Positions 3,896-54,690 of a stretch of DNA of 64,000 bases are shown here, piece after piece. Position 1 is the stretch's first letter, and each line of letters starts with the position of its first letter. The notes under the pieces are model-generated. The model ran no database searches and was not told the DNA's origin. It was given only the letters and a program-made list of their open reading frames with translations. The position numbers and the translations under genes were made by a program. The DNA is from an uncultured Candidatus Saccharibacteria bacterium (GTDB taxonomy: Bacteria; Patescibacteriota; Minisyncoccia; Phycocordibacterales; DATGWK01). The stretch lies in NCBI GenBank assembly GCA_964428845.1, contig CAYRZH010000003.1, positions 25,884-89,883 of the forward strand. Direction: 5' to 3'.

Positions 3896-6800
3896 TCTCC
3901 CTTAGACGACAAAATTCACAAGAGGAGTCATCACATTTTTTATTCCAAAACTTTAGGTCAAAAATTTCTGCAGCGATAGAAGAAATTTCCTTTCTCAAGG
4001 CATCTGCATCCTCTACCGTAATTTCAAACAATTCCTTTCTATATTTACCAGATTTGTCGGGCTCAACAAAGTCCACAACTCCCTTCCCTACCTTAAGTTG
4101 GCCACTGTCAAATTCGTCCAAAAGAATTTTGTAGAAAACGAGCTGTCTTTTGTAATTACCATCAGAGCTCTTGGTACCACCCTCTATCTCCCTTCTGCTT
4201 TTTGGATTTCCAGTCTTGTAGTCCACAACTGTGACAGAGTCCCCCAAGTCCGGTTCGATCTTATCGATTTTTCCTTTTAGGAGCAGACTCTCTTTACTTC
4301 CCGCCTGACTCGTAAACGGCAAGAAGGTTCCTACTACGTTTAGCTCATTTACAATTGGCTTCGGCCAAGTATTTTTATATGCCTCGAAATATCCCGATAG
4401 AGATTTTGTTCCTTTCTCGAGAAATAACTTGAAATCGTCTTCAGAAAGAGCTTTTTTGTTAAGAAAATTTTCAAAAAGTGAGAGGAAATTTTTCTTGGAC
4501 ATTAGCCTGCCGTTCCGATATTCATCAAAGAAAACCTTGAGAGTTTCATGAATGGCCGTGCCGTAAAGCTGATATCTTTCTTCGGCCTTCGGTACCCTGA
4601 TAAGATTCAAAAAGAAAAATTTCCAAGGGCAATCTATATAATTATTGAGAGCGCTTACCGATATGCCTTCTTCAAGAAAAACCTTTCTCAAATAATTCTT
4701 GTCCCTGATCGATGGAGTAACCTTAGGGCGACGATCAGAGGTTACCCGCCCCGCTTTTCCAATAGGAACTTTGATATCTATTTTTTTAATCTTACTTGGA
4801 TCAATTTCTTCCAAGAATTGACTAGGTAAAAGTTCCTTTTGAGAATTATCCTTTTTTGAATATGAAAGAGTCACCTCCTTACGGGCTCGGGTTAAGGCAA
4901 CATAGAGCAGGCGTCTCTCGTCTTCCACTCCACCGTCATCTACTTCACTTAGACTGCTTAGAGGCAGGAAATAACTGGGCATCCTCCTATTCCCCCAATG
5001 CCCATCGTTCATACCAACACAAAAAACATAATCAAACTCCAAACCCTTGGATTTATGCGCCGTCATAAGATTTACTTTTCCCGGTGCAACAGAAAAACCT
5101 TGAGTGCGGATTGAGACATCGTGCCTCGATAGAGTATTCAAAAAAATAATGTAGTCCTTGAGAGTGTAATATTTATGACGCTCAAGAAGACCTACCGCCT
5201 GACTTAGCAAGGTATTTAGAAGTGAAAGTTTCTCGGTTCCGCTTTCTCCAAGCATCAAGTAAGAGATGAAACCCATATTGTGCATAACAGCTTCAAGCGT
5301 CTCCGAAAGATTTTTCTTCTTCGCCGCGAGGCTTAGCTTGTGCAACTTCGAATAAAGATCACTGAATTTATTTACATCTTTTATACCAGCCGCCTTAAGG
5401 TCAGATGGCTTTCTTAAAGAATCGTAGATGGATATTTTGTTTTTTCTCGAAGCCCTGACCAGTTTGAAAACATCCAGATGATCCAGGCCTAAAAAATCGA
5501 AGAAAAGCACTGGAACAATAAGTTCGTCATTTCCAAAATCATTTATAGCATAAAGCACGGCGATAAAGGCTCTTATGTCTTCGTCAGCAAAAAGATCTGT
5601 CTCGGAATGTATTACGTAAGGTACCCCAGCTGACTCGAATACTTGTCTAAGAGGCAGAGCATCTTTATTGTCTCTGTATAAAACTGCAATGGAAGGCGCA
5701 TCTACCCCACCAGCGATCTTCATCTTGATTTTGGAGACAACCCACTCGTACTCAAGCCTTTGACTTGGAAGTTCTGCAAGGAAAATCGATGGCCCTGCGG
5801 TGGATCGTGATGAGACCAGCCGTGGTCGCATATCGTCTAGGGCCAGAATATTTTTTGAAATCAGACTATGGGAAGCATCGAGAATGGCTTGTGGTGATCG
5901 GTAATTTTTCTTTAGAGTAATAAGTTTTGCCTCCTTGAATCTCTTTTTAAAATAAAGAAAGTTTTCGAGTGAAGCGCCTTGGAAACGGAAAATAGCCTGC
6001 TTCTCGTCCCCGACGATGAATAGATTGGGGTTCTTGTGGAAGCCAGAAAGCAGTTCTAGAAGCTTATTTTGGGCGTTATTTGCGTCCTGGTGCTCGTCGG
6101 CCAGGATGTATTGGTAATTTTCTTGGAGTTCAAGGAGAAGGTTCTTATTTGCTCTCAATTCTTTCAGAACTTCTATAATCATATCCTCATAGTCATAGAG
6201 TCTCTTTTTATCAAGCGACTCCTGATATTTTTCGTAAACTAAAAAAAGTTCCTCGCTATTTTGGATTCTTCTTTCTGTTGGCTTCCACTTTGCTTTCATC
6301 TCACCCTTATAGGCTCCACTTTGATGATACAGGTCTTCGTTTGACTCGAAACGCTTCCTCTCGTCTGCCAGTATTTTTTTAAAATTTTTTGGGTCGATAT
6401 CGTCTCGCTTCAGTTCCTTTATTTGAGAAATTATTGATTTTAAATAGAAAAAAGGATTACCATAAGGTTTAAGATTTTTGAGTTTGGTCTTGGAAATTAT
6501 TTCTTCGAGAATTTTTATCTGATCAAGGTCACTCATGTTTTGAGCGCCAATGATTCGAGGAAATTCTTGAGGATAGCGTTTTATTATCTCATTACAGAAG
6601 CTATGGAATGTGTGAATGTTGGCTCTATAGCCTGTTGGGCCAACGATCTCCACGAGCTTTTTTCTTATGGAGTGAACCCCCGATTCGGTAAAAGTGAGCG
6701 CAAGAATACTTGAGACCGATGCATCTGTTTTTCGTAAGATATTTGCGATCCGCAGAGTAAGAATGGAGGTCTTCCCCGTACCTGGGCCAGCGATGACCAT

Positions 6801-8151: not shown

Positions 8152-9867
8152 TTATACTTTGTGCTTTATTGCGGAAAGCTTGGTGCTGATCTCCTGACAG
8201 TGTTCCAGAAGTTGTCTTGCTAGATTTGCGTCATTACCTTTTTCTGCCACCCTCATCGCTGTTATGGTTTCGGCAAGTTCGTCTTTGAGTTTTTCTTCCG
8301 TAAGTCTTTCGAATAATTCTTCGATGTGATCCTCTAAACTATCACTCCCCTCAAAGTACTGCTCGATCTCAAAGATTAGTTTATCCTTATCGGGATAGAG
8401 CTCTGATCGGAGTTTTTCTAGCCTTTCTTTGCCAATAAGTTCTTCGAGACGCTTCAGTATATCAGGAACCTTTACAGAAGTATTTCTTACGGTCTCTTGC
8501 CAGAAAACTAGACCGAGTATCGAACGGGCAACGGTGTGTCTCTTTAATTCTCCATTTTGGTTACTAAATTTTGGATTTCTTATCTCCGGACGAATCTGCT
8601 TTGACAGAGCTTTTAGATCATCCCAAATCGCCTCTTCTTTTATGTTTGTTTTTTCTGAAATGCTTTTTACAAAATGAGATCTCTCAATAGCGCTCGAAAC
8701 CAATAGAACAAAAGGTAATACTTTTTCTTTTATCTGTTTTGAAATATTCCGCCCACTTATGCCAGAAGCAATTAGGGAATCAGTGTAGAAATCCACAATG
8801 TGTTTCGAGGTAGAGACCAGATCTCGCCACATCTTTGGGTTCTTTAGAATAAGAGAGGCCGGGTCATCGCCTTCGGGCAGACTCACAATTTTTACCTCCA
8901 TTCCTAGAGAAAGTGCTAGGGTGGCGCTTCTTTCTACCGCCACAAACCCCGCGCTATCTCCATCGAAAGCAAACATAATCCTGTTTGAAAGACTTTGAAG
9001 TTTCTTTATGTGCCGATCACTAAAGGCAGTGCCCGAGGAAGCTACAGTATTGAGAAAACCCGCCTGGTGCGACATTATCAGGTCAAACTGACCTTCTACT
9101 ACGATGGAGTAATCCTGCTTTCTAATGGCCATTTTGGCCCTATCCAGACCATATAGGAACTCTGACTTATTGAAGAATTTCGTTTCTGGGCTGTTCAAAT
9201 ACTTAGGTGATTTTTCATCAGGAGTAAAGATTCGACCAGAAAAACCGACGACCGTCCCTTTCTGATCAAAAAGTGGAAACATGATTCTGTCGCGGAATGT
9301 ATCGTAGTACGGTTCACCACTCCCCTTCTCGTTCTTTTTTATAAGACCAACGGAGAACATCTGCTCTGCGGTAACGCCCTTCTCGAGAAGGAAACTGTAG
9401 AGGGATCGCCATTCATTTGGGGCGTAGCCGATCTGCCAAGTCTCAATCGTACCCTCCGTCAGACCCCTCTTCTTCAGATACGACACCACCTCATCTTTTT
9501 GTGCTAGCCTGTCAACAAAAAACTCTACCGAATCCTCCAAAAGATTTAGTAAATTTTTGTTTTCATCTCTAACCTCTTTTTTCTCCGGGATAAGTTCGAC
9601 ACCGGCTCGCAAGGCCAACATCGAGAGCGCTTCTTTAAATTCTACGCCCTCAAACTCTTGAACAAAGCTGAAGATGTCACCTTTCGCTCCACATCCAAAA
9701 CAATAATATGTGCCGCGGTCTGGTGAGATGAAAAAAGAGGCTGTCTTTTCGTTGTGGAATGGACACTTGGCCTTGAAGTTTGCCCCCGCCTTCTCTATCT
9801 TTAGGTACGACGAAACTACTTCCGAGATACCAAGACGCTCCTTGATTTTTTCTACATGGGAAGACAT
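8152..9867 (-). CDS. dnaG: DNA primase
   Basis: Zinc-ribbon [11 protein letters not shown]...CFGCGAKGD, a Toprim region, and a conserved dnaG-rpoD arrangement. Confidence 0.9.
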
Positions 9868-9885: not shown

Positions 9886-12800
9886 TTAACTTAAATTTCG
9901 CTTTCTCAAATCTTCAATCATCTTTGCCTTCGAACTTCCCTTAAAACCGGTACCGGCCGGAATCAAATTTCCAATAATGACGTTTTCTTTGAGACCAATT
10001 AGATGGTCCTCGTGACATTTCAAAGCTCCGCTGATAAGAACTCTCGTCGTGTGCTGGAAAGAAGCAGCAGATAGGAAGCTTCGCCTCGAAAGGGAAATCT
10101 CTGTGATGCCCATGATCACGGCTTCCCCCTTGGACTCATCGAGGTTTCTCTCCTTAGCAATTTTATTTGCCTCAAGAAACTCCGTGAGTTCGACCAGATC
10201 TCCGACAGAGAATTCTGTGCCACCCTCGTCTTTTATCCTGCGCCTACTGAACATTTGTCTAACGATAACTTCGATATGCTTCCTTGAAACAGGCGAGCCT
10301 TGCAGTTCGTAGAGTTTACTGATTTCGTGAATGACATATTGCTCGGTTTTCTCGCGGCCAGCATAGCGGAAAAGTTCATCCAAATCTGCAGATCCATCGG
10401 TAATCAAATCTCCTTTTTTGACCTGCTCCCCAACCTTAACAGAAATCATTCTGTTGTAGTTCACAGAATAATCTGAACTAGCTTTCGTCTTTGCTTTTGA
10501 TTTATCTGATACATCCGGCAAGATACTGATGAGTTTCTCACCGGCAGAGTTTTTGATTTCTGTTACAACACCATCCACATGGCTAATGACAGCGGGGTTT
10601 TTTGGCTTTCTTTTTTCAAAAACTTCTTCGACACGAGGTAGACCACGAGTAATATCACCACCGACAGAGGCAGTACCACCGGCATGGAAGGTTCTCATGG
10701 TTAGCTGGGTTCCTGGCTCACCGATAGCTTGAGCAGCAACTGTGCCGACTGCTTCTCCGAGCTCAATGACTTTATTTTTTCCTAAGTCGTAACCGTAGCA
10801 TTTTACACAGATTCCACGCAGACTCTTGCAAGAGAGTGGTGAACGGACCAGAACTTCGCTTATTCCTGCCTGCTCGATAGCGCGGGCCATTTCCTTTGTA
10901 ATACACTCTCCCTTTTTTGCTATCACTTCACCCTTACTGTCAATGCTGTCTTCGGCAAGAAATCTACCTTTAATGTTTTGAGACAGAGGAACTTCAATAC
11001 CAGAAGCACTTTCCTTTCTCAATACGATTCCTTCCTTGCTTCCACAATCTTCTTCTCCAACCACAACGTCTTGAGCCACATCGAAGAGACGCCTAGTGAG
11101 GTACCCAGCCTTGGCAGTATTGAGAGCGGTATCAGTGAGACCTTTACGCGAACCGTGAGTGGTAATGAAATACTCTAGAGGGCTCAATCCTTCTTTACTA
11201 CAAGACAGAATCGGAAACTCGATCGTTTCACCGGCTGTGTTCTGGATAAGACCTTTCATGCCGACCATCTGGGTGATCTGGCTAAATGAACCTCGGGCTC
11301 CGGAGTAGACCATGTCATAGACAGAGTCTTTTTTGCCCAAGGTCGTTGGCATTAGTTTCTCGACTTCTCCCTTGGCGCCGTGCCAGATTTCGATATTCTT
11401 TCTGATGCGCTCCTCTTCAGAGATAAGACCGTCTTTGTACTGTGTGAGGATCCCTTCGGCTTTTTGTTTTGCCTTTGCAATGACCGCATTCTTTTCTGTT
11501 GGAATTTTAACATCATCTATACCCCACGTTGTTCCAGAATACGTAGCGTATCGGAATCCGAAATCTTTTATTTTATCCATGACCGCCGGGATGTTTTCTA
11601 TCCCATATTTTTCGATGAGACTGTCGATGAGTTGCCCCATTTTCTTTCTATCGACTTCCGCATTTATAAATGGGTAGTCCAGCGGCAAGACGCTATTGAA
11701 GAGAATTCTACCCACAGTGGTTTCGAAAATCCCTCCATTAAATTCCTTGTATTTTGTTGTATCGTCGGCGAGAACCTTTATTTTTGCGCGGAAATCCAAT
11801 TCACCAAAATTATGCGCTGTAATAGCGCTATTTGGTTCTTCGAAATATTTGCCTTCTCCCTTTTCACCATCGATAGACTTGGTCATCCAGAAACAACCCA
11901 AGATGATATCGAGCTTATCGATAGACGCGACGAGATTACCACTTCCCGGCTTCAGGATGTTTTTGTCAGAGGCCATTATCTCACGAGCTTCTTCTTGTGC
12001 CTCTATAGACAACGGAACATGAACCGCCATCTGGTCACCGTCGAAGTCAGCGTTAAATGCAGTACAAACTAGAGGATGGACCCGGACAGCATCTCCTTCA
12101 ACAAGAATCGGTTTGAAGGCCTGGATACCTAGTCGATGCAAAGTTGGAGCACGATTTAGAAGGACAAATCTATTCTTGATGATTTCTTCGAGAATCGCCC
12201 AAACTTCTGGAATCCCATCTTCGATGAGCCTACTTGCTCCACGGATGTTATAAGCTAATTCTTTTTTTAGAAGGCCTGAGATTACAAAAGGTTTGAAGAG
12301 TTCCAGGGCCATATGTTTTGGCAAACCACACTGGTTGAGCTTAAGTTCTGGACCAACGACGATTACGGATCGTCCCGAGTAGTCAACACGCTTACCCAAG
12401 AGATTGGCCCTAAAGAGACCTCGTTTGCCCTTCAAATTGTCAGAAAGCGACTTGAGTGGTCGACGTTGAGATTGGTTGAGAGCAGAACCAGGAGAGTTTC
12501 CATGTCTGATGGTGTTATCTATAAGGGAATCCACTGCTTCCTGAAGGATTCTTTTTTCGTTTCGCAAGATCACTTCCGGAGCATTTATTTCTTTGAGTTT
12601 CTTTAGTCTATTGTTTCTGTTTATGACACGACGATATAGATCGTTGACGTCCGAGGTGGCATATCTACCTCCATCGAGCGGAACCATAGGACGAAGTGCT
12701 GGTGGGATGACAGGTACACGACTGATGAACATCCACTCTGGGCGGATATTGTTTCTGATCATTGAACGCACAAGCGATAGACGTTTTTGAATTTTATCGA

Positions 12801-18623: not shown

Positions 18624-18734
18624 GGGTCTTGAATAGATGCCTCGTCGAGCACGGATAAATTTTTGCTAAAATTTTCCTCGAGCTCGCGCCGTCGCGCTCG
18701 CTAGTCTCGCCTCGGCATCTATTCAAGACCCCCT
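18624..18734. repeat. Hairpin element copy 1: a roughly 110-nt element with 21-nt terminal inverted arms (gggtcttgaatagatgcctcg ... cgaggcatctattcaagaccc) and a conserved GC-rich core
   Basis: Aligns end to end with copies at 26265-26373 and 54584-54690. The arms are reverse complements of each other. Confidence 0.8.
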
Positions 18735-18941: not shown

Positions 18942-19649
18942 CTAGGTGGCTTGAGGGACGGCAACTGGTGTATGAGAACCGACTTGCGACACAGCGAACG
19001 CGAACCCGCGGTCACGAAGCCTCCCGCCGCCAGGCCTGCCGCTGCACGCGTTGAGCCAGCGACCACCGCCGACACGGTCCGCGCAGAGCAAGCGCGGATC
19101 GCCGACGGAGTCGTTGATGGGTTCGTGCATGGCAACGATGTACCACAGACCCATCGCTTCGATCTCCTTGTCCGTGAACTTCTCACGGATGAGGCAGGCC
19201 AGTTCGGCGTTCGGCTTCGAGAGCTTGCGTCTGTCGGCCTCGGCGCGGATCTTCTTCGTGGTCCGGTCGTTGTCCTCGAAGAGCATGCCCTTGAGAACGG
19301 CGACTTCGGTCGTCACGCCGCTCGTCGGCTTGAAGTCAGGGCTTCGGAGCACCTGCTTGGCGTAGTCACCCACACGGAGGCCTCTGCTTTTGAGTCGAGT
19401 GATCCAGGCTTTACCGGTCGTGCCGTCGCTCGTAACCCAGAAGTAGATGACGCCGCCTTCCTCGTGCCAACGCTTGGGGGGGTTGGAGAGCGGGAACGGA
19501 CCACGAATCGCGTCGGCAATTCTCACCTGCTCTACCACAGATGCGCCTCGAAATCTCTGCAGATCCGCTCGAGTGACACCCCTGACATCCAAGATCTCCA
19601 ATGTGGCCATGGCTTCCGAAATAGGTATTTCACTGACAAGGCTCCCCAT
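18942..19649 (-). CDS. High-GC island gene 1: hypothetical protein of an unrecognised family (paralog of 50662-51318 and 26555-27223)
   Basis: About 63% GC against an approximately 40% host. Strong SD (GGAAGGAGAcccaaATG). Shares a 331-bp identical block with 50803-51133. C-terminal motif AMHEPINDS...GGGRWL..C.GRP shared with the two other island genes. Confidence 0.7.
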   Translation of the reverse strand: MGSLVSEIPISEAMATLEILDVRGVTRADLQRFRGASVVEQVRIADAIRGPFPLSNPPKRWHEEGGVIYFWVTSDGTTGKAWITRLKSRGLRVGDYAKQVLRSPDFKPTSGVTTEVAVLKGMLFEDNDRTTKKIRAEADRRKLSKPNAELACLIREKFTDKEIEAMGLWYIVAMHEPINDSVGDPRLLCADRVGGGRWLNACSGRPGGGRLRDRGFAFAVSQVGSHTPVAVPQAT

Positions 19650-26264: not shown

Positions 26265-26373
26265 GGGTTTTGAATAGCATACCTCGTCGAGCACGGATAA
26301 ATTTCTGCTGAAATTTTCCTCGAGCTCGCGCCGTCGCGCTCGCTAGTCTCGCCTCGGCATCTATTCAAAACCC
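26265..26373. repeat. Hairpin element copy 2
   Basis: Full-length alignment to copy 1. The core ctcgtcgagcacggataaattt.tgct.aaattttcctcgagctcgcgccgtcgcgctcgctagtctcgcctcgg is identical except for 2 nt. Lies immediately upstream of the rpmF promoter. Confidence 0.8.
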
Positions 26374-26554: not shown

Positions 26555-27223
26555 CTACTTACGACGGACAAACACCAAGCGGTGGCCAGGACCCCAGACG
26601 CTGAGAGGGCGGCCGTCGCAAGTACGGAGCCACCGCCCACCACAGACGTCGCATCCGACAGAGAACACGTCGAGGTCGCTGTACGAGTCCCAAATGGGAT
26701 GCATCGCGATAGCGACACACTCGTCGTTGGGTTGGTCGATGTACTGCAAGCGCAGTTGCGGACCGGCTTCTGCTGGACAGAGACCAAGTCCGAGCTTGTC
26801 GGCCTCGGCACAGATGTTATAGAAGGCCGTACTGTGCTTGAAGCCGAGTTCAGCTACTGTAACAAGCACGAGGTCGAGTTCTATCGGCTCCTTGCTCACG
26901 ATAAACTCGGGCTTGTCGAGGATGTCGCCCGCCGCCAGGTCGTCGATTTTCATTTTCGCGGACTTGATGGCCCTTCGGAAACCCGCGCCATCCTTGATGC
27001 CGGTGCCGAGCTTGATGGTTTTCCATGTCGACCAGGCCCTAATAGGCTCGGCTCTTGCCCTGCCACCATTGCGGAGAAACTCCGTGAACCGAACCCCCGC
27101 ATTGTGCGGACTGTCGATCAGTGCCTGGACGCCACTTGGGCTAAGCACTTCCCAGTTGGTGTTTGCCCCCAACTTGGCAAGCAACTCGAATCTCTGCTCG
27201 ACGCAGATTGTCTTGGCAGCCAT
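26555..27223 (-). CDS. High-GC island gene 2: hypothetical protein, a divergent paralog of island genes 1 and 3
   Basis: High GC. SD AAAGGAGGtagccaATG. Shared blocks with the island-1/3 proteins: GTGIKDGAG vs DGTTGKAW, ICAEADKLGL vs IRAEADRRKL, AIAMHPIWDS vs IVAMHEPINDS, CGGRWLRTCDGRP vs GGGRWLNACSGRP. Confidence 0.6.
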   Translation of the reverse strand: MAAKTICVEQRFELLAKLGANTNWEVLSPSGVQALIDSPHNAGVRFTEFLRNGGRARAEPIRAWSTWKTIKLGTGIKDGAGFRRAIKSAKMKIDDLAAGDILDKPEFIVSKEPIELDLVLVTVAELGFKHSTAFYNICAEADKLGLGLCPAEAGPQLRLQYIDQPNDECVAIAMHPIWDSYSDLDVFSVGCDVCGGRWLRTCDGRPLSVWGPGHRLVFVRRK

Positions 27224-49433: not shown

Positions 49434-50445
49434 CATGGCAAAATTTGATTTTTTGGCTCTCGGAGATATCACCACCGACGCATTTATCCGGCTCAAGGAC
49501 GCCTCGGTCCACTGCAATCTAGATCGCGAAAAGTGCGAACTCTGCCTGCGATTTGCTGATAAAGTTCCTTATGAATTTGTTGAGATCATCCGTGCTGTGG
49601 GCAACAGTGCCAATGCGGCCGTAAGCGCCGCCCGCCTAGGTCTCAAATCCGCATTTATGACAAATCTCGGCGCGGATCAAAACGGTCGTGAATGCTTGGC
49701 AGAACTCAAAAAAAATGGAGTTTCGACAAAACTTGTCACCATCCACCGGAAAAAAGAAACAAATTATCACTATGTTTTATGGTTTGAAGATGAGCGAACG
49801 ATTTTAATAAAACACCAGCAGTATGAATACAAGTTTGTAGCGCCAGCGCGAGCACCAGGTTGGCTTTACTTGAGCTCACTTGCCGAAAATTCTCTCCCCT
49901 ATCATCTGGAGATAATTGAATACCTTAAGAAACATCCGGAAACAAAGCTGGCGTTTCAGCCTGGGACATTTCAGATGAGGCTTGGGCGAGAAAAACTTTC
50001 TGATTTATATAAGCTATCTCACGTTTTTATTTGCAACACAGACGAAGCAAAAAGGGTTTTGGAAATTTCGGAAGAGACAACGGGAAATGAGATCGATATT
50101 CCAGAGCTTCCTAAAAAAATACACGCGCTCGGGCCAAAAATTGCTGTGATCACCGACGGTCCAAAAGGGGCGTATGTCTTTGACGGGACAACTACTTGGT
50201 TTATGCCGCCGTATCCAGATCCGAAGCCACCGTACGAGCGCACTGGCGCAGGCGATGCTTTCGCGTCTACTTTTGTTTCTGCCCTAGCGCTCGGCAAAAG
50301 TATCGAGGAAGCACTTATGTGGGCACCGATAAACTCAATGTCAGTGGTGCAAGATATAGGGGCACAAAGAGGACTCTTGAAACGCGAGAAACTTGAGGAG
50401 TATTTAAAACAAGCGCCGGGGGATTATAAGCCGAGGAGGATTTAA
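49434..50445 (+). CDS. PfkB-family carbohydrate/nucleoside kinase (ribokinase-like). Start chosen at MAKFDFLALGD; the track's 49333 start overlaps fba.
   Basis: N-terminal GD..D glycine motif and a C-terminal TGAGDAF anion-hole motif. Confidence 0.75.
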
Positions 50446-50454
50446 ATATTTATC

Positions 50455-50492
50455 AAAAGAAAAAAGCCCCGCAACCACGCGAGGCCTCCATG
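50455..50492 (-). terminator. Repeat A: terminator-like 38-mer (aaaagaaaaaagccccgcaaccacgcgaggcctccatg), repeated at 51897-51935
   Basis: Minus-strand reading gives an imperfect GC stem followed by T6. A second, 37-bp copy lies at 51897-51935, with a 1-nt indel and a few substitutions. Confidence 0.5.
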
Positions 50493-50585
50493 TTTACGTC
50501 TGGAATACGTTGCGACAATTTGCCGCGAGCAAAGGTCTAAAGTCAAAGGGTTCTACTGCCGATATAGGTATAACTGGTTTTATAT

Positions 50586-50625
50586 AAAAAATTCAGCCCT
50601 GCTCCGACGGATCGGAACAGGGCTA
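50586..50625 (-). terminator. Rho-independent terminator of island gene 3
   Basis: agccctg...cagggct stem and T-run on the minus strand. Confidence 0.65.
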
Positions 50626-50661
50626 AGGGCTAAGGCCAAAGGGACTGAAGTCCCGAGGGTC

Positions 50662-51318
50662 TTAGGATTGAGAACCAACTTGCGGGACAACGAACGCGAA
50701 CCCCCCACCACCATCCCACCTGCGGTCAGGCCCGCCGCCGCGCGCGCGGAGCCAGTCACCACCGTCGCACCGGTCCACGGAGAGCAAGCCCGGAACACCA
50801 CAGGAGTCGTTGATGGGTTCGTGCATGGCAACGATGTACCACAGACCCATCGCTTCGATCTCCTTGTCCGTGAACTTCTCACGGATGAGGCAGGCCAGTT
50901 CGGCGTTCGGCTTCGAGAGCTTGCGTCTGTCGGCCTCGGCGCGGATCTTCTTCGTGGTCCGGTCGTTGTCCTCGAAGAGCATGCCCTTGAGAACGGCGAC
51001 TTCGGTCGTCACGCCGCTCGTCGGCTTGAAGTCAGGGCTTCGGAGCACCTGCTTGGCGTAGTCACCCACACGGAGGCCTCTGCTTTTGAGTCGAGTGATC
51101 CAGGCTTTACCGGTCGTGCCGTCGCTCGTAACCGAGAAGTAGATGACGCCGCCTTCTTCGCGCCACGAACGGGTCGGCTTTGAAACAACCCATTCACCCG
51201 AATTGACGAGTCTGATCGCTTCATTCGGGTCGGTCGAGCCGGTCTGACGCATGATGTTCTTCACCAGTGCGTTCAGCTTGCCGGGTAGCACGTCTGCGAT
51301 TGCGAATTTTGTGCTCAT
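50662..51318 (-). CDS. High-GC island gene 3: hypothetical protein, a close paralog of island gene 1
   Basis: The 331-bp block 50803-51133 is identical to 19108-19438 by manual comparison. SD AAGGAGatacaatcATG. The protein shares EEGGVIYF...GLWYIVAMHEPINDS with island gene 1. Confidence 0.7.
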   Translation of the reverse strand: MSTKFAIADVLPGKLNALVKNIMRQTGSTDPNEAIRLVNSGEWVVSKPTRSWREEGGVIYFSVTSDGTTGKAWITRLKSRGLRVGDYAKQVLRSPDFKPTSGVTTEVAVLKGMLFEDNDRTTKKIRAEADRRKLSKPNAELACLIREKFTDKEIEAMGLWYIVAMHEPINDSCGVPGLLSVDRCDGGDWLRARGGGPDRRWDGGGGFAFVVPQVGSQS

Positions 51319-51470
51319 GATTGTATCTCCTTGGGCTAATTTGCCCGTTTCGTTTTCCTCTAATCCGAGGAGGAACCATGGCCTATGTGGTCATAGCGAG
51401 GAATGGCCTAGTTTTAAGCCACTTTTCGCTATGACCACTTACAAGTAGTTCAATGTTCAGTCTGCGGCTC

Positions 51471-51499
51471 ATTTTACACCCTTTCTTGGTATAAGTCAA
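51471..51499 (-). promoter_or_regulatory. Near-consensus sigma-70 promoter for island gene 3 (TTGACT-N17-TAAAAT)
   Basis: Reverse complement reads ttgact tataccaagaaagggtg taaaat. The 150-nt leader contains the hairpin gtggtcatagcg...cgctatgaccac. Confidence 0.55.
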
Positions 51500-51511
51500 T
51501 ACCTCGTCGTT

Positions 51512-51808
51512 TTATGATTTTTTTAGATATCTAACAAGTTTCTTACCAGTAAAAGGACCTATTGATTCACCTCGAGTATATTCTTCTCTTGCCTCTCGTA
51601 TGATTTTTGCTAGGTATGGAGTTGGCACTAGCTCGTTAGCAGATAGTACTAGTTTCTTCTCCCGAACAAATTGCTTCAGGAAAGCATTGATCGCGGTGCT
51701 CAATGGTACACCAAGCTCTTCGGCTGTTTCCTTGGCCGCCTTTTTTAAATCCTTCTCCGTTTTTATATTTAATATTGTTTTGGTATTCATATACCAAAGT
51801 ATATACAA
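51512..51808 (-). CDS. Ribbon-helix-helix RelB/DinJ-family antitoxin-like protein, with no RelE-like toxin partner adjacent
   Basis: Length and the TAINAFLKQFVREKKLVL pattern match DinJ/RelB antitoxins. The downstream gene on the same strand is island gene 3. Confidence 0.55.
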   Translation of the reverse strand: MYILWYMNTKTILNIKTEKDLKKAAKETAEELGVPLSTAINAFLKQFVREKKLVLSANELVPTPYLAKIIREAREEYTRGESIGPFTGKKLVRYLKKS

Positions 51809-51838
51809 TGGTATATTTAAGTCAATACTGCCTTACTT

Positions 51839-51881
51839 CCTCCCCACCACCTTCAAAACAGCTTTCTTTATAACTTCTACT
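51839..51881. repeat. Repeat B: a 43-bp duplicate of the 3' coding end of the transketolase C-subunit gene (true copy at 53603-53645)
   Basis: tccccaccaccttcaaaacagct(t/c)tctttata(a/g)cttctactc. The minus-strand translation ...VEVIKKAVLKVVGRK* mirrors the tkt C-terminus ...VEAIKRAVLKVVGRK*. Confidence 0.8.
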
Positions 51882-51936
51882 CTCTCGAAAAAAATTGAAA
51901 AGAAAAAGCCCCGCACCGCGCGAGGCCTCCATGCTA

Positions 51937-52650
51937 TCAACTCAACGATTCGCTTAGACCTACCCCCATCTCGCTGTAGAACTCATCAAGAGGAGCTTTG
52001 ATCAATCCTAGTTGCTTGAGGGTAAAGTATTTCCCCTTTAGTGTCTCGACTTCTCTTTTCACCTGCCCCTCATCCAGAGTCTCGCCCTCGCCCAGCTCAC
52101 CTTTCAACTGCAGGATTTTGACGACTTGCTGAGCCATAATCTCATTCGCAATACCCTCTAGCTCGGCAAGGTTTAGCCCACAGAGATCTTTCAGATCAGT
52201 GACACCTGTTTCCCTGATAAAGTCCGATAAACAAACTCGGAATAGGTAGAACTTCGGAGATATGAGGTTGGTTAGAAACCTCCCAACCGCAGAGAGGACC
52301 ATTCCAAAAACACAGAGAACAAGGCCGATTTCTATGGCGATCGATATCCACATAGACACGACGGCCTGACACAGAGCCAATAAGGTATTGGGGGTTATGA
52401 AGACAGTGCTCAACAGAAGGGTAAGAAAACAAAACCCCACTAATAGGGCCAGAGCCAGTATAAGATACAGATAGCCCCACATCACACCCTCGATGAACCG
52501 TATCGCCCTCGCGACTCTTAGAAAATCCTTTCCAGTTCTTTCTCTCCATAGGTTGAGAATAGCTTCTGGAATTTGCTTTCTCTTTACGACCACCACCCAA
52601 TCCTTCGTACTCCAGCCATGGATACTATTCAGTTTACGGACAGTGCTCAT
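51937..52650 (-). CDS. Hypothetical integral membrane protein (3 TM plus a C-terminal coiled/acidic cytoplasmic domain). Start chosen at MSTVRKLNS, which has an SD ACAGGAGAcagagaATG.
   Basis: TM segments (WGYLYLILALALLVGFCFLTLLL, LLALCQAVVSMWISIAIEIGLVLCVFGMVL). The track ORF extends to 52761, but the promoter at 52752-52785 argues for the shorter start. Confidence 0.45.
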   Translation of the reverse strand: MSTVRKLNSIHGWSTKDWVVVVKRKQIPEAILNLWRERTGKDFLRVARAIRFIEGVMWGYLYLILALALLVGFCFLTLLLSTVFITPNTLLALCQAVVSMWISIAIEIGLVLCVFGMVLSAVGRFLTNLISPKFYLFRVCLSDFIRETGVTDLKDLCGLNLAELEGIANEIMAQQVVKILQLKGELGEGETLDEGQVKREVETLKGKYFTLKQLGLIKAPLDEFYSEMGVGLSESLS

Positions 52651-52751
52651 TCTCTGTCTCCTGTGTTTTATTAGAAAATGGCCCTGTTTCGCACATTTTC
52701 TACCAGTTATCGATTCTTTTTGCCCGCTACCAAAGAACATCTTCCCGCGAG

Positions 52752-52785
52752 AACAATACAACTTTTTAGTACTGAGTCAATCACG
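52752..52785 (-). promoter_or_regulatory. Sigma-70-like promoter (TTGACT-N16-TATTGT)
   Basis: Reverse complement reads ttgact cagtactaaaaagttg tattgt. Confidence 0.45.
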
Positions 52786-52821
52786 CCATAGTTACAAGAT
52801 GATCTCGCAGGGCAAAGGAAA

Positions 52822-52850
52822 AGCCCGCGACGATTGTCGCGGGCTTTGAA
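52822..52850 (-). terminator. Rho-independent terminator of the 52861-53397 gene
   Basis: Perfect 10-bp stem agcccgcgac/gtcgcgggct followed by TTTTCCTTT on the minus strand. Confidence 0.7.
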
Positions 52851-52860
52851 AACTTGAAAT

Positions 52861-53397
52861 TCAACTTGCGAGAACCGGAGTGGGGGCAGAGGCGGTCCAC
52901 TGTCCTTCCGTGCGACCTTCTAGATAAGCCTGATCGCAGAAAGGATCCCAATGCTCATCCCAGGAGAGACGGAGAACGAACTCCCCAATGCCATCCTGGA
53001 AGATGGTACCCCAGAAGCAGAGATCGGTCCTTTTCCCAAGACGATCTCTCTTCCATCTTGCGGGAATGAGTTTGGGGTTCTGCTTCAGAACAGAGAGGAC
53101 CGTGGCAGGCAAAGCCTTACCCCTGATCTGGAAACGGAACTTGGAACCAGGGACCGCCTTACCCGCCAACTGGTCGGGAGAGAGGAAGAGTTCGATCTTC
53201 TCACCGTTGGCAAAAAGATCGTCTCCCACACGGGTGAGCTTGAGCTCTCCCATGTCAGTGTGCTGCTTGATCGACCAGCCGTCTTCGAGCTGTGCCGGAT
53301 CGAGGTGACGTGGAACGTCGAACTCGGTCGGCAGTCCAACGTCGAGCCCCAGCTCATTGTTATTGCCAGCCATTTGAGTCTCCTTTCTGGTTTGCAA
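52861..53397 (-). CDS. High-GC hypothetical protein (178 aa), unrelated in sequence to island genes 1-3
   Basis: High GC against the local background. Minus-strand ORF with a strong terminator. No recognisable domain. Confidence 0.45.
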   Translation of the reverse strand: MQTRKETQMAGNNNELGLDVGLPTEFDVPRHLDPAQLEDGWSIKQHTDMGELKLTRVGDDLFANGEKIELFLSPDQLAGKAVPGSKFRFQIRGKALPATVLSVLKQNPKLIPARWKRDRLGKRTDLCFWGTIFQDGIGEFVLRLSWDEHWDPFCDQAYLEGRTEGQWTASAPTPVLAS

Positions 53398-53595
53398 CAG
53401 CGTTCTTTCGAACTGCGTTGCTTTTACTCTGTTTTGCTTACCACATTGGTTTGCCCCAGCATAGAAAGCCCTTTTGGGCCCTCTACGCTAAGGCAAACTC
53501 GCAAGTTTGTTAACGTGCTATCTGCGTATATTATACCACCATTCAAATAATAAGTCAAGCTAATCTGTTAGGTAACACACTCCCAAATTAATAGC

Positions 53596-54573
53596 CTATT
53601 TTCTCCCCACCACCTTCAAAACAGCTCTCTTTATAGCTTCTACTCCCATGCCGTAATGCTCGATGAGCTCGTCTGGCTTGCCTGATTGACCAAACTCGTC
53701 TTTTACGCCGAGAAATTCTATTGGTACTGGAAAATTTGAGGCTAGGCATTCTGCAACGGCGCTACCCATTCCACCCGCGATCTGATGTTCCTCTAGGGTC
53801 ACTATTGCGCCAGTTTCTTTGGCCGCATCTACAATAGCTTTCTCGTCGAGCGGTTTTATGGTTGCCAGATTTATAACATTCACATTTGTGCCAGCGGTTT
53901 CAAGATCGTGCGCCGCCTGCATGGCTCGGTAGACAAGCGCGCCGGTTGCGATGATTGTGGCGACCGGCGTATTCTTCGGTTCAAAAAATGTTGCCGCCTT
54001 CCCTATTTCAAAAGGAGTATCTTCGGTTGTGATAACTGGAGTCTTTTCTCGTCCAAGACGAATGTAAACCGGAGTATCTGTCTTTGCGGCCGCGATCGTA
54101 GCTTTGCGCGCTTCGATGGCGTCGCAGGGTGAGATCACCACCATACGCGGGATGACTCGCATGATAGCAATGTCCTCGATCGCTTGATGTGTGCCGCCGT
54201 CGGGCCCTACAGAAATACCCGCATGCGACCCGATGATCTTCACAGGACGATCGTTGTAGCAAATAGTGGTCCGGATTTGTTCCCAGTTTCTTCCTGGAGA
54301 AAACATAGCGTAAGAAGTAATGAAAGGAATTTTGCCCATGGCCGCCATACCGGAGCCAACTCCAGCAAGATTTTGCTCGGCAACTCCGATCTGCACAAAT
54401 CTTTCCGGAAATTTTTTGGCAAAAAGGTGGGCTTGGGCAGACTCTGTAAGGTCGGCACAGAGAGCTACCACTCGCGAGTCGGCTTCACCAGCAGCTAAAA
54501 GCCCTTCGCCATATCCTTTTCGGATCGGCACCTGCTCGATGTCAGCGGAAAAAAGTTTGGGGTTCAGGTTCAT
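53596..54573 (-). CDS. tkt: Transketolase C-terminal section (pyrimidine-binding and C-terminal domains) of a split transketolase
   Basis: 325 aa matching the transketolase C-half (GVAEQNLAGVGSGMAAMG, GPDGGTHQAIEDIAIMR). Confidence 0.85.
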   Translation of the reverse strand: MNLNPKLFSADIEQVPIRKGYGEGLLAAGEADSRVVALCADLTESAQAHLFAKKFPERFVQIGVAEQNLAGVGSGMAAMGKIPFITSYAMFSPGRNWEQIRTTICYNDRPVKIIGSHAGISVGPDGGTHQAIEDIAIMRVIPRMVVISPCDAIEARKATIAAAKTDTPVYIRLGREKTPVITTEDTPFEIGKAATFFEPKNTPVATIIATGALVYRAMQAAHDLETAGTNVNVINLATIKPLDEKAIVDAAKETGAIVTLEEHQIAGGMGSAVAECLASNFPVPIEFLGVKDEFGQSGKPDELIEHYGMGVEAIKRAVLKVVGRK

Positions 54574-54583
54574 TATGGATATG

Positions 54584-54690
54584 GAGTTTAAATAAATACC
54601 TCGTCTCGCACGATAAAATTCTCGCTGAAATTTTCCTCGTGCTCGCGCCGTCGCGCTCGCAAGGCTTCACCTCGGTACTTATTTAAACTC
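54584..54690. repeat. Hairpin element copy 3
   Basis: Arms ggagtttaaataaatacctcg / cgaggtacttatttaaactcc pair perfectly. They differ from copies 1 and 2 at several positions on both arms simultaneously. Core ...aaattttcctcg.gctcgcgccgtcgcgctcgc is conserved. Lies 11 nt upstream of the tkt C-section ATG. Confidence 0.75.

Follow-up and report, generated by a model that had tools for sequence, protein, structure and literature searches.

A two-layer cassette stack with DGR-type cargo in the tktC-pfkB gap of a Candidatus Saccharibacteria genome

INTRODUCTION

The target genes of the diversity-generating retroelements (DGRs) of Patescibacteria/CPR (clade 2 of Roux et al. 2021, PMC8144416; the 'CPR set' of Wu et al. 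2018, PMC5758913) are the closest match to the cargo of the locus described here, and horizontal transfer and atypical GC content have been reported for DGRs (PMC5758913). GC3, one of the cargo genes, is like such targets in having a hairpin behind an IMH-like end (the IMH is where mutagenic homing begins, at the variable repeat 3′-end), a predicted fold of the C-type-lectin/FGE-like kind and a GC content that is atypically high. Unlike complete DGRs, the four target genes of the window, i.e. the whole 64-kb stretch of DNA analysed, are unaccompanied by a template repeat (TR) or reverse transcriptase (RT), and these DGR papers (PMC8144416, PMC5758913) give no account of host-tail duplications, cassette stacking or a shared structured leader.

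In its arrangement, the locus resembles the C-terminal displacement and orphan arrays of rhs, CDI and T6SS effector-immunity systems, which have been explained by homology-facilitated illegitimate recombination (Kirchberger et al. 2017, PMC5361080, citing Jackson et al. 2009). With those arrays it would share a conserved upstream gene as homology anchor with the new module added beside it, a previous module pushed downstream behind a short remnant of the anchor-gene 3′-end, and growth by repeated events without an integrase. However, the anchor here is a housekeeping gene (tktC, uvrB, dnaE and others) that belongs to no toxin system, and the modules lie outside it as complete expression cassettes. 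The displaced remnants, at 28-95 nt, are very short, and the window has a second copy of the terminator too.

Islands of tyrosine integrases at the 3′-ends of tRNA or protein genes are similar in their direct repeats of the target 3′-end, the tandem of two units and the restoring of the gene by an element-side copy; tandem accretion at one att site occurs in such islands and integrative elements. Unlike these, the present locus shows no integrase and its units are very small (1.4-1.7 kb), and related cassettes share no constant attachment site and vary in their ends. Integron arrays likewise consist of small, mostly one-gene cassettes in one orientation at one site, gaining new cassettes at the proximal end while older ones shift back, but no IntI, attI or attC sites are seen here, each cassette has its own promoter and terminator, and the repeats at the boundaries consist of sequence from the host gene and the terminator. 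New here is the placing of both high-GC cargo genes as DGR variable-protein genes.

RESULTS

The gene for the transketolase C-terminal subunit (tktC, 53596-54573, minus strand; Pfam Transket_pyr and Transketolase_C), the host gene with the duplicated 3′-end, is convergent with a pfkB-family kinase gene (49435-50445, plus strand) that forms the right-hand edge of an insertion hot spot, and the gap between them measures 3.15 kb here and holds two units framed by the repeat pairs B and A. Read on the minus strand, the order is tktC, B′, unit 2 (GC4 and a membrane-protein gene), A′, 15 nt, B, unit 1 (RelB and GC3), A and the pfkB stop, with GC4 bracketed by B′/B and GC3 by A′/A. A preliminary description of the locus had proposed two units bounded by the same repeat pair in just this order, and this holds: both pairs were recovered with essentially unchanged coordinates, and B proved to be a second copy of the tkt 3′-end, still in frame.

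The proximal copy inside the gene, B′ (53597-53645, minus strand), comprises the final 15 codons and stop of tktC, and B (51834-51882, minus strand) is the distal, displaced copy; the two match over 49 nt with 92% identity, share an uninterrupted identical block of 24 nt, and are lengthened by BLAST to 53 nt (51830-51882 versus 53594-53645, E = 5e-12). Translation yields VEVIKKAVLKVVGRK for B versus VEAIKRAVLKVVGRK for B′, each ending in a stop, with frame and stop intact in B; the differences between the copies comprise 3 synonymous and 3 non-synonymous ones (P = 0.2). A (50457-50492, minus strand) and A′ (51898-51933, minus strand) match over 36-38 nt with one indel (92%, E = 5e-7 by BLAST) and both fold as minus-strand intrinsic terminators, i.e. 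a 12-bp stem and then a T run. A, the resident terminator, lies 11 nt off the pfkB stop codon, and A′ ends unit 2, beginning 3 nt past the stop codon of the membrane-protein gene. Divergence is the same for both pairs (B/B′ ∼8%, A/A′ ∼8%). The 15-nt joint between A′ and B (51883-51897), a putative illegitimate junction, is novel, resembles neither the stretch following A nor the one preceding B′, and falls where right-hand (pfkB) homology would start.

Shuffles of the window gave 0.00 expected chance matches for either motif, and self-BLAST of the whole 64-kb window found no further copy of A or B. Because the cores of both are absent from all 168 other loci and from the rest of the window, A and B are not generic terminator or repeat sequence and are specific to this locus. 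The pairs are probably two versions of one ∼100-bp 'tkt tail - terminator' segment and not recombinase sites.

Unit 2, the tkt-proximal one, carries the GC4 cassette promoter (53530-53558, minus strand; TTGACT-17-TATAAT with extended TG), which aligns with the promoters of GC3-family cassettes, and a structured 5′ leader hairpin (53450-53497, minus strand) of the same type as in those cassettes, with compensatory changes at 19 of 30 pairs in a 10-sequence alignment. GC4 (52861-53373, minus strand; ∼55% GC) has its variable region in the last ∼40 codons and ends in the IMH-like motif CTCGCAAGTTGA, and a GC-rich hairpin (52820-52846, minus strand) lies directly 3′ of its stop codon. With a leader as in GC3 cassettes, a C-type-lectin fold and a family hypervariable at the C-terminus, GC4 is probably a DGR variable-protein gene of a second, remote type. 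The neighbouring gene (51937-52653, minus strand) has its own promoter (52753-52780) and encodes a 238-aa membrane protein with 3-4 predicted hydrophobic helices, for which Pfam, PHROG and NCBIfam gave no match.

In the distal unit 1, a relB promoter/operator (51798-51825, minus strand) starts 7 nt past the B stop codon and matches, at 87% identity across 46 nt, the promoter region of relBE in locus L022. The gene behind it (51512-51790, minus strand), previously described as an RHH protein, encodes an orphan RelB/DinJ-family antitoxin (Pfam RelB, TIGR02384) and is followed by no toxin gene; next downstream of its L022 homolog is a small ORF that reads RelE-like by eye. The GC3 cassette promoter (51471-51499, minus strand) begins 13 nt past the relB stop codon and precedes a conserved leader hairpin (51387-51437, minus strand; inverted repeat I1). 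GC3 itself (50662-51318, minus strand; 218 aa, 60% GC) has a predicted C-type lectin/FGE-like fold and a variable repeat (VR; 50669-50802, minus strand) with the IMH-like end CCCGCAAGTTGG. After it come a conserved hairpin/terminator (50593-50626, minus strand) and a DGR-region remnant (50553-50593, minus strand), a part that runs on into the TR transcript where the element is complete and here breaks off after GGCAGTAG.

GC3 is a DGR variable-protein (target) gene. More than 2000 homologs were found in Patescibacteria, many of them followed by a TR with adenine-only differences and an RT, and an RT lay at most 2.5 kb away in 10 of the 31 GC3-family loci having sufficient downstream sequence. 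This is exemplified by L081, where the homolog is 83% identical, its 134-nt VR and the TR differ at adenines only, and the RT carries the motif LGNLTSQ. Between GC3 and GC1, a paralogous variable-protein gene outside the gap (18942-19649, minus strand), the VRs differ at 34 of 134 nt, enriched at consensus TR adenines, and the adjoining 331 nt are 100% identical. A diverged gene of this kind, GC2 (26555-27223, minus strand), also lies outside the gap, and a GC2-like gene stands upstream of an RT in L155. The window thus holds four variable-protein genes (GC1, GC2, GC3 and GC4) and no RT or TR within its 64 kb, and the four are therefore orphan or remote targets. An undescribed small cassette system had been suggested earlier, when the DGR identity of these genes was missed; the high-GC cargo is instead a known kind of element. 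Each unit is a self-contained expression cassette, consisting of promoter, structured 5′ leader, hypervariable C-type-lectin-fold DGR gene and hairpin, and the membrane-protein gene beside GC4 and the orphan RelB antitoxin beside GC3 are passengers.

Among relatives, the synteny of tktN-tktC facing pfkB-fba is kept in 57 of 80 loci, and the closest tktC homolog is 81% identical, no same-species genome being present in the databases searched. The tktC-pfkB gap is an insertion hot spot because its length varies from -8 to 2772 nt: 14 relatives have a tight gap of -8 to 60 nt, in several of them with one hairpin terminator, and the larger gaps of others, up to 2772 nt, hold unrelated ORFs. The 3.15-kb gap is a two-layer cassette stack in this intergenic hot spot. 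Two earlier suggestions gain from the comparison, namely that A is terminator-like, a single terminator of this kind lying between tktC and pfkB in the tight-gap relatives, and that one site was entered repeatedly, the gap having been used again and again. Tail duplication accompanied DGR-type cargo in this gap in 2 of 2 cases versus 0 of 43 non-DGR inserts, which hints at something specific to these cassettes.

Direct repeats bracket the cassette in 7 of the 37 family loci having sufficient flanking sequence, versus 3 of 51 shifted controls, all of other repeat kinds. In 6 of those 7 loci (L088 tktC, L097 uvrB, L111 dnaE, L160 greA, L155 tmk and L104 tRNA-His) what is repeated is the 3′-end of the host gene lying upstream, either alone or together with its terminator, so that a duplicated gene 3′-end, taken earlier as the mark of acquisition, goes with such cargo in other genomes too. 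The seventh, L112, has a 23-nt match at the detection limit; L125, outside the 37 as its right flank is too short, has a 28-nt repeat near, not at, the upstream gene end. In L088, from a lineage sharing only 63% tktC identity with the window, a 74-nt tktC-tail duplication flanks a GC3-like gene. Differences between repeat copies were all synonymous in L097 (5/5, P = 0.0006), with a synonymous bias also in L111 (P = 0.018) and L088 (P = 0.03). Duplication and insertion are coupled, because the other loci have one insert placed exactly between two tail copies; L104 carries a like tandem array with three copies, which begins in the last 6 nt of tRNA-His, just downstream of an ORF that reads tyrosine recombinase-like by eye. 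Repeat lengths vary from 28 to about 90 nt, the left spacers of the inserts are unrelated to one another, and the right ends break the DGR at various points, namely past the hairpin, on either side of the TR or within the 3′-end of the RT; neither a fixed site nor conserved left or right termini were found across related cassettes. In all 7 cases examined, the cassette shares the orientation of the gene upstream, and in the window and L155 a terminator T run forms the end of the insert.

DISCUSSION

Two parts of the preliminary description find no support. A B-A site split twice by insertion cannot give the order B′-c2-A′-B-c1-A (c2 and c1, the cargoes of units 2 and 1) unless the site was duplicated first, and two insertions each with target duplication likewise cannot. 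Nor does anything indicate the integrase to which the scar had been ascribed; the host genes differ (tktC, uvrB, dnaE, greA, tmk, tRNA-His) and the termini are not conserved. That description had itself seen no integrase, and indeed the units contain none and none is evident in the 64-kb window, whose ∼55 ORFs were surveyed by eye from length and first residues, 8 of them being scanned with Pfam; attC-like sites were likewise not seen by eye. Models of the integrase, integron or transposon type do not pass the tests that define them.

The interleaved pattern requires an insert bearing its own homolog of the resident flank. With somewhat better than even confidence, we favour an incoming tkt-tail-cassette-terminator segment that recombined in tkt, joined illegitimately before the resident tail and displaced the older unit; which side was donor and which recipient, in what order this happened and by which recombination pathway we infer as follows. 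The resident chromosome would have been tkt-B-(RelB-GC3)-A-pfkB when DNA bearing the locus as it stood in a related lineage, tkt-B′-(GC4-membrane)-A′, came in. On the left side homologous recombination in tkt would have taken place, and on the right side a joint within 15 nt past A′, immediately 5′ of the resident B, would be illegitimate because the incoming DNA stopped short of any pfkB homology; the old tail and its cassette would have been moved downstream, not replaced. If the B′-c2-A′ segment was instead a circle taken in by one crossover of the Campbell type, an indistinguishable product would result. Displacement arrays at T6SS effector-immunity and rhs loci are ascribed to homology-facilitated illegitimate recombination (PMC5361080). 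Judging from L097, L111 and L088, and not from the copies in the window, the paired repeats have the look of orthologous tails that are both functional. In its classical form, this kind of recombination usually deletes recipient DNA and does not duplicate it. The position of the joint, 28-95 nt before the stop codon, is accounted for only by a stability-filter argument, and the uniform co-orientation with the upstream gene is not predicted by a purely random recombination model.

Duplication in place, i.e. tandem doubling of the ∼100-bp tkt-tail-terminator segment (or of an occupied B-cargo-A unit) followed by the uptake or exchange of differing cargo by the two copies, each at the same point past the stop codon and ahead of the terminator, is essentially the 'split twice' scenario minus the integrase, and appears unlikely. 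The equal ∼8% divergence of both pairs fits one duplication event, the point between tkt stop and terminator is insertion-prone in relatives, and the B/B′ differences of the window carry no significant synonymous bias; but three events would be needed, with two independent insertions at the same position of adjacent copies, whereas elsewhere duplication and insertion are coupled with one insert exactly between the tail copies, and the synonymous bias in L097, L111 and L088 favours orthologous tails over in-place decay. Duplication of a gene 3′-end is also the classical scar of site-specific (Campbell) integration, and the topology of the window is exactly what would result if a circle (c2-A′-15 nt-B) entered the tkt tail via an att core in B by means of a tyrosine or serine recombinase acting in trans. 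The 24-nt unbroken block of B/B′ and the L104 array with its recombinase-like ORF (by eye) agree with this, yet we consider it quite unlikely: a recombinase gene is in neither unit and none is evident in the 64-kb ORF survey, closely related cassettes stand behind unrelated host tails without a convincing common core, the repeats range from 28 to about 90 nt with variable truncations as right ends of the inserts, and A′ is homologous to the resident terminator, which an att-bearing element has no reason to carry.

A retroelement-driven insertion, in which the DGR RT (or another RT) would copy a tail-to-cassette read-through transcript and target- or homology-primed cDNA synthesis would duplicate the tail, would suit the company of tail duplications and DGR-type cargo (2/2 versus 0/43 at the gap; 7/37 family loci), the co-orientation in 7/7 examined cases and the transcript-like insert end at the T run in the window and L155. 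We regard it as very doubtful, since the window has neither RT nor TR, other inserts stop at non-transcript ends, even inside the RT gene, the 331-nt identical stretch of GC1/GC3 bears no adenine-specific scars, and a transcript from the same cell would remake the same cargo, not a different one; moreover, no insertion activity of this kind is known for DGR RTs, and the DGR reviews consulted do not mention one. It is highly improbable that the assembler joined two strain variants of the locus. The contig does come from a metagenome-assembled genome, and the units resemble alternative alleles of one locus with flanks diverged by ∼8%, but the 15-nt A′-B joint is novel sequence that no assembler can invent, the repeats are short (36-49 nt) and non-identical and therefore would create no graph ambiguity, and a like architecture recurs in independent assemblies of other studies (L088/L090, L097, L104, L111, L155 and L160).

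Two interleaved repeat pairs frame the units between tktC and pfkB

The interval behind the gene of the transketolase C-terminal subunit (tktC, 53596..54573, minus strand, assigned by Pfam) holds two pairs of direct repeats, and their placement at the tkt 3′-end in the preliminary description was borne out by coordinates, identity, E values and shuffles. In plus-strand coordinates, the displaced copy of the tktC 3′-end (B, 51834-51882) matches the in-gene copy (B′, 53597-53645) over 49 nt with 92% identity, a match that BLAST lengthens to 53 nt (E=5e-12), and the two terminator copies, A (50457-50492) and A′ (51898-51933), match over 36-38 nt with one indel (92% identity, E=5e-7). B′ consists of the final 15 codons and the stop of tktC, and B has kept both frame and stop, the translated tails reading VEVIKKAVLKVVGRK versus VEAIKRAVLKVVGRK, each followed by the stop; A and A′ are predicted to fold into intrinsic terminators of the minus strand. 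The chance expectation for an A or B motif was 0.00 in shuffled sequences, and no further copy of either was found in the window or in 168 other fetched loci, so the objection that these are generic terminator sequences scattered over unrelated loci does not hold.

Read along the minus strand, the layout is tktC, B′, the proximal unit (GC4, hairpin, membrane-protein gene), A′, 15 nt, B, the distal unit (relB, GC3, hairpin), A, 11 nt and the pfkB stop. GC4 is thus flanked by B′/B and GC3 by A′/A. The ∼60 nt at 50493-50552, between the truncated remnant of a diversity-generating retroelement (DGR) in the distal cassette and terminator A, matched nothing else compared.

The tktC-pfkB gap is an insertion hot spot

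A scan for tktC with one genome per species yielded 80 loci from Paceibacteria/Parcubacteria genomes (67-80% identity), and tktC and pfkB were convergent neighbours in 57 of them, all more distant than species level, on which the gap comparison rests. The distance between the two stop codons ranged from -8 to 2772 nt; it was at most 60 nt in 14 loci, several of which had one bidirectional hairpin terminator, and the bigger gaps carried unrelated small ORFs. The gap is thus an insertion hot spot, and that of the window, with 3150 nt, exceeds every other one seen. Because relatives have tight gaps with a single terminator, the ancestral arrangement is 'tkt stop - terminator - pfkB stop', just as had been proposed from the window alone. 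A direct duplication of the tkt tail was found in none of the 43 occupied gaps. The nearest tktC homologs in the genome collection and a set of 5.8 billion proteins are 78-81% identical, none exceeding the best value of 81%, and nucleotide BLAST of the region against the 80 tkt loci returned only the relB promoter (comparison locus L022) and the tkt tail (L005).

GC3 is a DGR variable-protein gene and GC4 probably another

The high-GC single-gene islands GC1 (18942-19649), GC2 (26555-27223), GC3 (50662-51318) and GC4 (52861-53373) have no match in Pfam, PHROGs or NCBIfam. GC3 has more than 2000 homologs with 65-83% identity, every one a hypothetical protein of Patescibacteria, and across the same groups it is better conserved than tktC. 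A DGR target was recognized by a 3′ variable repeat (VR) that is matched by a template repeat (TR) differing essentially only at TR adenines, and by a reverse transcriptase (RT) with the motif [LIV]GxxxSQ. Downstream of the homolog in locus L081 (83% identical) lies a second, 134-nt version of the gene's 3′-end; the pair differs only at adenines of the downstream copy, which is therefore the TR, and an RVT_1 reverse transcriptase with LGNLTSQ and YADD comes next. L081 is a canonical DGR. Among 31 metagenomic loci of the GC3 family (the Patescibacteria homologs with their cassettes) whose downstream sequence extends for 2.5 kb or more, an RT lies 0.5-1.1 kb downstream in 10 and a TR-like copy is present in 9, and 20 have neither nearby (L083-L162). 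Orphan or remote targets thus seem to be the rule, not the exception, in this family, and the 64-kb window likewise has neither an RT (tblastn) nor a TR. The GC3 VR ends in CCCGCAAGTTGG, which resembles the IMH site where mutagenic homing starts, and a GC-rich hairpin follows (50593-50626), both kept across the family; the AlphaFold model shows a C-type-lectin-type fold that carries the VR (pLDDT 79.6). GC3 is therefore certainly a DGR variable-protein gene.

Over 331 nt (50803-51133), GC1 and GC3 do not differ at all (100% identity), and the adjoining 134-nt VR (50669-50802) holds 34 differences, which fall preferentially on consensus TR adenines (Fisher p=2e-4). As read from the sequences, this pattern indicates that a stretch was recently converted or duplicated between the two genes and that DGR mutagenesis acted during or after this event. 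The two genes lie 31.7 kb apart and were compared over 18973-19469 (GC1) and 50669-51165 (GC3); their N-termini, promoters and flanks differ. DGR target genes also adjoin dnaE in several genomes (L111, L140, L154), as GC2 adjoins rnhB/dnaE in the window, and genes of the rpsP/trmD region in L159, as GC1 does in the window. The targets thus recur in the same housekeeping surroundings, which may reflect shared ancestry or repeated insertion.

GC4 represents a second, remote type. A word-based search with it matched only GC4 itself, and an exhaustive HMMER search retrieved 519 remote relatives, which have a block in common at the C-terminus. On one viral contig, three GC4-like paralogs differ mainly at NAC-type codons of this block and end in CTCGCAAGTTAG. 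GC4 itself ends in the IMH-like CTCGCAAGTTGA, followed by a GC-rich hairpin (52820-52846), an arrangement kept across its family, and its AlphaFold model again shows a C-type-lectin-type fold carrying the VR (pLDDT 86.6). In a profile-profile comparison, the variable regions of GC3 and GC4 aligned without significance (probability 8.6%), and PDB sequence searches with the profiles of both families returned nothing. GC4 is probably a DGR variable-protein gene.

Duplicated host-gene tails are a recurring footprint of the cassette family

By comparing 3.5 kb upstream with 3.5 kb downstream of each GC3-family member, we found direct repeats bracketing the cassette in 7 of the 37 loci with enough flank; at shifted control positions repeats appeared in 3 of 51 and were of other kinds. 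In six of the seven, a check showed the repeat to be the tail of the host gene upstream, which runs in the same direction as the cassette; some of these repeats also take in its terminator. These are the tails of tktC in L088 (74 nt, 77% identical), uvrB in L097 (51 nt, 90%, bracketing target, TR and RT together), dnaE in L111 (47 nt, 89%), greA in L160 (32 nt, 97%) and tmk with hairpins in L155 (65 nt, 95%), and in L104 a repeat that begins in the last 6 nt of tRNA-His and is present in three copies around two islands; the seventh locus, L112, has a 23-nt match at the detection limit. L125, with a 28-nt repeat near, not at, the end of the upstream gene, has too short a right flank and stands outside the count. 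L088 matters most, as a GC3-type cassette directly follows tktC there, together with a duplicated tkt tail, in an independent lineage whose tktC is 63% identical. Tail duplication is thus a recurring footprint of this cassette family. As a lead, nothing else from this locus is as useful as such duplicated host tails at CPR DGR cassettes.

The inserts themselves are heterogeneous. Their left spacers have no similarity to one another, their right ends cut the DGR at varying positions (just behind the hairpin, on either side of the TR or within the last codons of the RT), repeat length runs from 28 to about 90 nt, and no conserved element termini were found next to the repeats; there is therefore no defined end, fixed attachment site or fixed repeat length. 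Differences between repeat copies are biased to synonymous ones in L097 (5/5, P=0.0006), L111 (P=0.018) and L088 (P=0.03), and B and B′ of the window differ at three synonymous and three non-synonymous sites, without significant bias (P=0.2). On these substitution patterns, the repeats would be a pair of orthologous tails, both functional, and not a tail with a decaying duplicate.

Several further features were observed at these loci. The DGR RT ORF of L097 (7479-8687) is without its own last ∼12 codons and runs into the distal uvrB-tail copy, ending at the uvrB stop codon. In L104, the repeat copies (5437-5522, 8898-9110 and 11984-12194) set off two islands from each other, one a complete DGR with target, TR and RT and one with another high-GC gene, a tandem array resembling that of the window; ARAGORN and Rfam gave no support for a tmRNA-like gene in this repeat, and an ORF just upstream of the tRNAs (4003-4992) was read by eye as a tyrosine recombinase. 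A short core shared by every host-tail repeat was also looked for; GAAA(A)TAG is unconvincing in this role, as it occurs in four of them and amounts to a Lys codon plus amber stop.

Origin of the stack

The object in the window is most likely a displacement-type stack of DGR variable-protein cassettes. Since GC4 is bracketed by B′/B and GC3 by A′/A, the interleaving excludes two successive target-duplicating insertions, as well as att x att exchange at a single B-A site that was still undivided; the order needs either an insert with its own homolog of the resident flank or a prior duplication of the site. Displacement is the simplest account, and we infer its direction of transfer, order of events and pathway as follows. 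The incoming DNA would have been the tkt-pfkB locus of a related lineage (tkt...B′-GC4-membrane-A′) and would have paired with the resident tkt. It would have lacked pfkB homology at its right end, so that this joint would be illegitimate, formed within 15 nt after A′ and just 5′ of the resident tail B; as the resident pfkB stop lies 11 nt after A, the joint falls where right-hand homology would have begun. A segment reaching farther right would have entered by ordinary double crossover, the old cargo being replaced rather than stacked. The ∼8% divergence, similar in both repeat pairs, would fit a single event between two diverged alleles. Single crossover of a circularized B′-GC4-membrane-A′ segment could have given the same product.

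The prior duplication of the site that the interleaving also allows, taking place in situ and followed by two insertions, is unlikely: it needs more coincidences than displacement and leaves unexplained why duplication and insertion are coupled at other loci. The preliminary description had favoured an integrase-type insertion or small cassette system, which is only partly right: the direct repeats of a gene 3′-end (B′/B) stand, and no recombinase, fixed site or defined ends were found. No recombinase ORF is present in 50446-53645, none is evident among the ∼55 window ORFs on visual inspection of their lengths and first residues, and the cargo proteins match no recombinase in Pfam, NCBIfam or PHROG. 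A recombinase acting in trans would suit the topology, but neither a gene nor a shared site nor defined element ends speak for it, and we regard it as quite improbable. An RT-mediated route is suggested by the link between tail duplication and DGR cargo (2/2 cases versus 0/43 at the tktC-pfkB gap), by cassette and upstream gene running in one direction in all seven cases examined, and by a terminator T run at the end of two inserts. It is nevertheless very unlikely, as the other right ends contradict it, adenine scars are absent outside the VR, and the cargo differs between the two units. Least credible, and very unlikely, is a chimera of the assembly, against which speak the short and non-identical repeats, the novel sequence of the 15-nt joint, and the same architecture in independent assemblies.

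Going beyond displacement, Patescibacteria DGR cassettes (promoter, leader, C-type-lectin gene, hairpin, with or without TR/RT) could form a mobile class of their own with dedicated, integrase-free entry behind co-oriented housekeeping genes, the host tail being duplicated and integron-like stacks of hypervariable genes, built up by repeated events, being served in trans by one RT. We hold this doubtful; the mechanism might be assisted by RT/cDNA or proceed via excised circles.

Comparison with described systems

An integrative element at a gene 3′-end likewise leaves direct repeats of its target gene, as B′/B are, but the host tails here vary (tktC, uvrB, dnaE, greA, tmk, tRNA-His) and share no constant attachment site. 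In contrast to an integron array, the A′-15 nt-B boundary is a terminator hairpin plus coding sequence; no attC cores (RYYYAAC/GTTRRRY) or attC-like structure were seen in 51830-51940 when read by eye, and no intI-like ORF is evident in the window. Unlike transposons and IS elements, the units have no conserved termini and no transposase, and their repeats are long and diverged and have no constant length; successive target duplications, moreover, do not yield the interleaved B/A order. The closest described process to the stack, by analogy of architecture, would be 'C-terminal displacement', by which orphan arrays come about at rhs loci and at T6SS effector-immunity loci and which is attributed to homology-facilitated illegitimate recombination (PMC5361080). 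As there, the distal unit is preceded by an anchor remnant (B, 49 nt, in frame with the stop), and such remnants also occur in L088, L097, L111, L160, L155 and L104.

[quoted passage not shown] The DGR literature that we searched does not describe host-tail duplications around DGR cassettes, their stacking or a shared leader, which is no proof of novelty.

Programmed protein hypervariability in CPR bacteria, which are tiny and depend on hosts, arises as far as known mainly from DGR variable proteins, for which a role in attachment is assumed. To our knowledge, how their target genes spread, and how several targets come to be in one genome, has not yet been worked out. The locus shows target cassettes stacking behind conserved housekeeping genes, and acquisition leaves a readable footprint, the displaced host-gene tail, that is open to systematic search. 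Such a search could date and orient transfers, locate hot spots and separate plain host recombination from a retroelement-specific process. For annotation, a high-GC island of one gene with no Pfam match is likely to be a DGR target when it stands in a low-GC CPR genome, also where no reverse transcriptase is near.

Shared leader, passenger genes and a hairpin element

GC3-family genes have a common promoter and a ∼150-nt structured leader with a 21-bp hairpin and two small hairpins, and compensatory changes were found in 19 of 30 pairs in an alignment of 10 leader sequences. In the window, this leader/promoter region lies upstream of GC3 (51319-51470) and of GC4 (53374-53529), so the leader type is common to gene types that are otherwise unrelated; it also precedes the targets in L081, L088, L097, L104, L111, L125, L160 and L167. 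Neither the leader nor the terminators nor the hairpin element described below had a match in Rfam.

The passengers are a membrane protein, with no match in Pfam, PHROGs or NCBIfam, and an orphan RelB antitoxin. The promoter/operator of the relB region (51512-51825) is 87% identical to that of a relB locus in L022 (4745-5373), where a small ORF, RelE-like by eye, follows relB. In the window, no RelBE toxin ORF follows relB, and the GC3 promoter begins 13 nt past its stop codon; a complete type II RelBE module is thus ruled out, RelB and its operator being present and the toxin ORF missing.

A hairpin element of ∼105 nt occurs three times in the window (18624-18731, 26265-26373 and 54587-54675), each copy just upstream of a minus-strand gene (rpsP, rpmF and tktC, respectively). 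It was also detected in L018 (6753-6801), where it lies between tktN and tktC as in the window, L030 (10893-10949) and L046 (11665-11708). Its core reads CACGGATAAATTTTTGCTAAAATTTTCCTCG.GCTCGCGCCGTCGCGCTCGC, and the outer stem differs in sequence between copies with its pairing kept (folding z-scores -5 to -8); the element could be a structured RNA or a MITE-like repeat.
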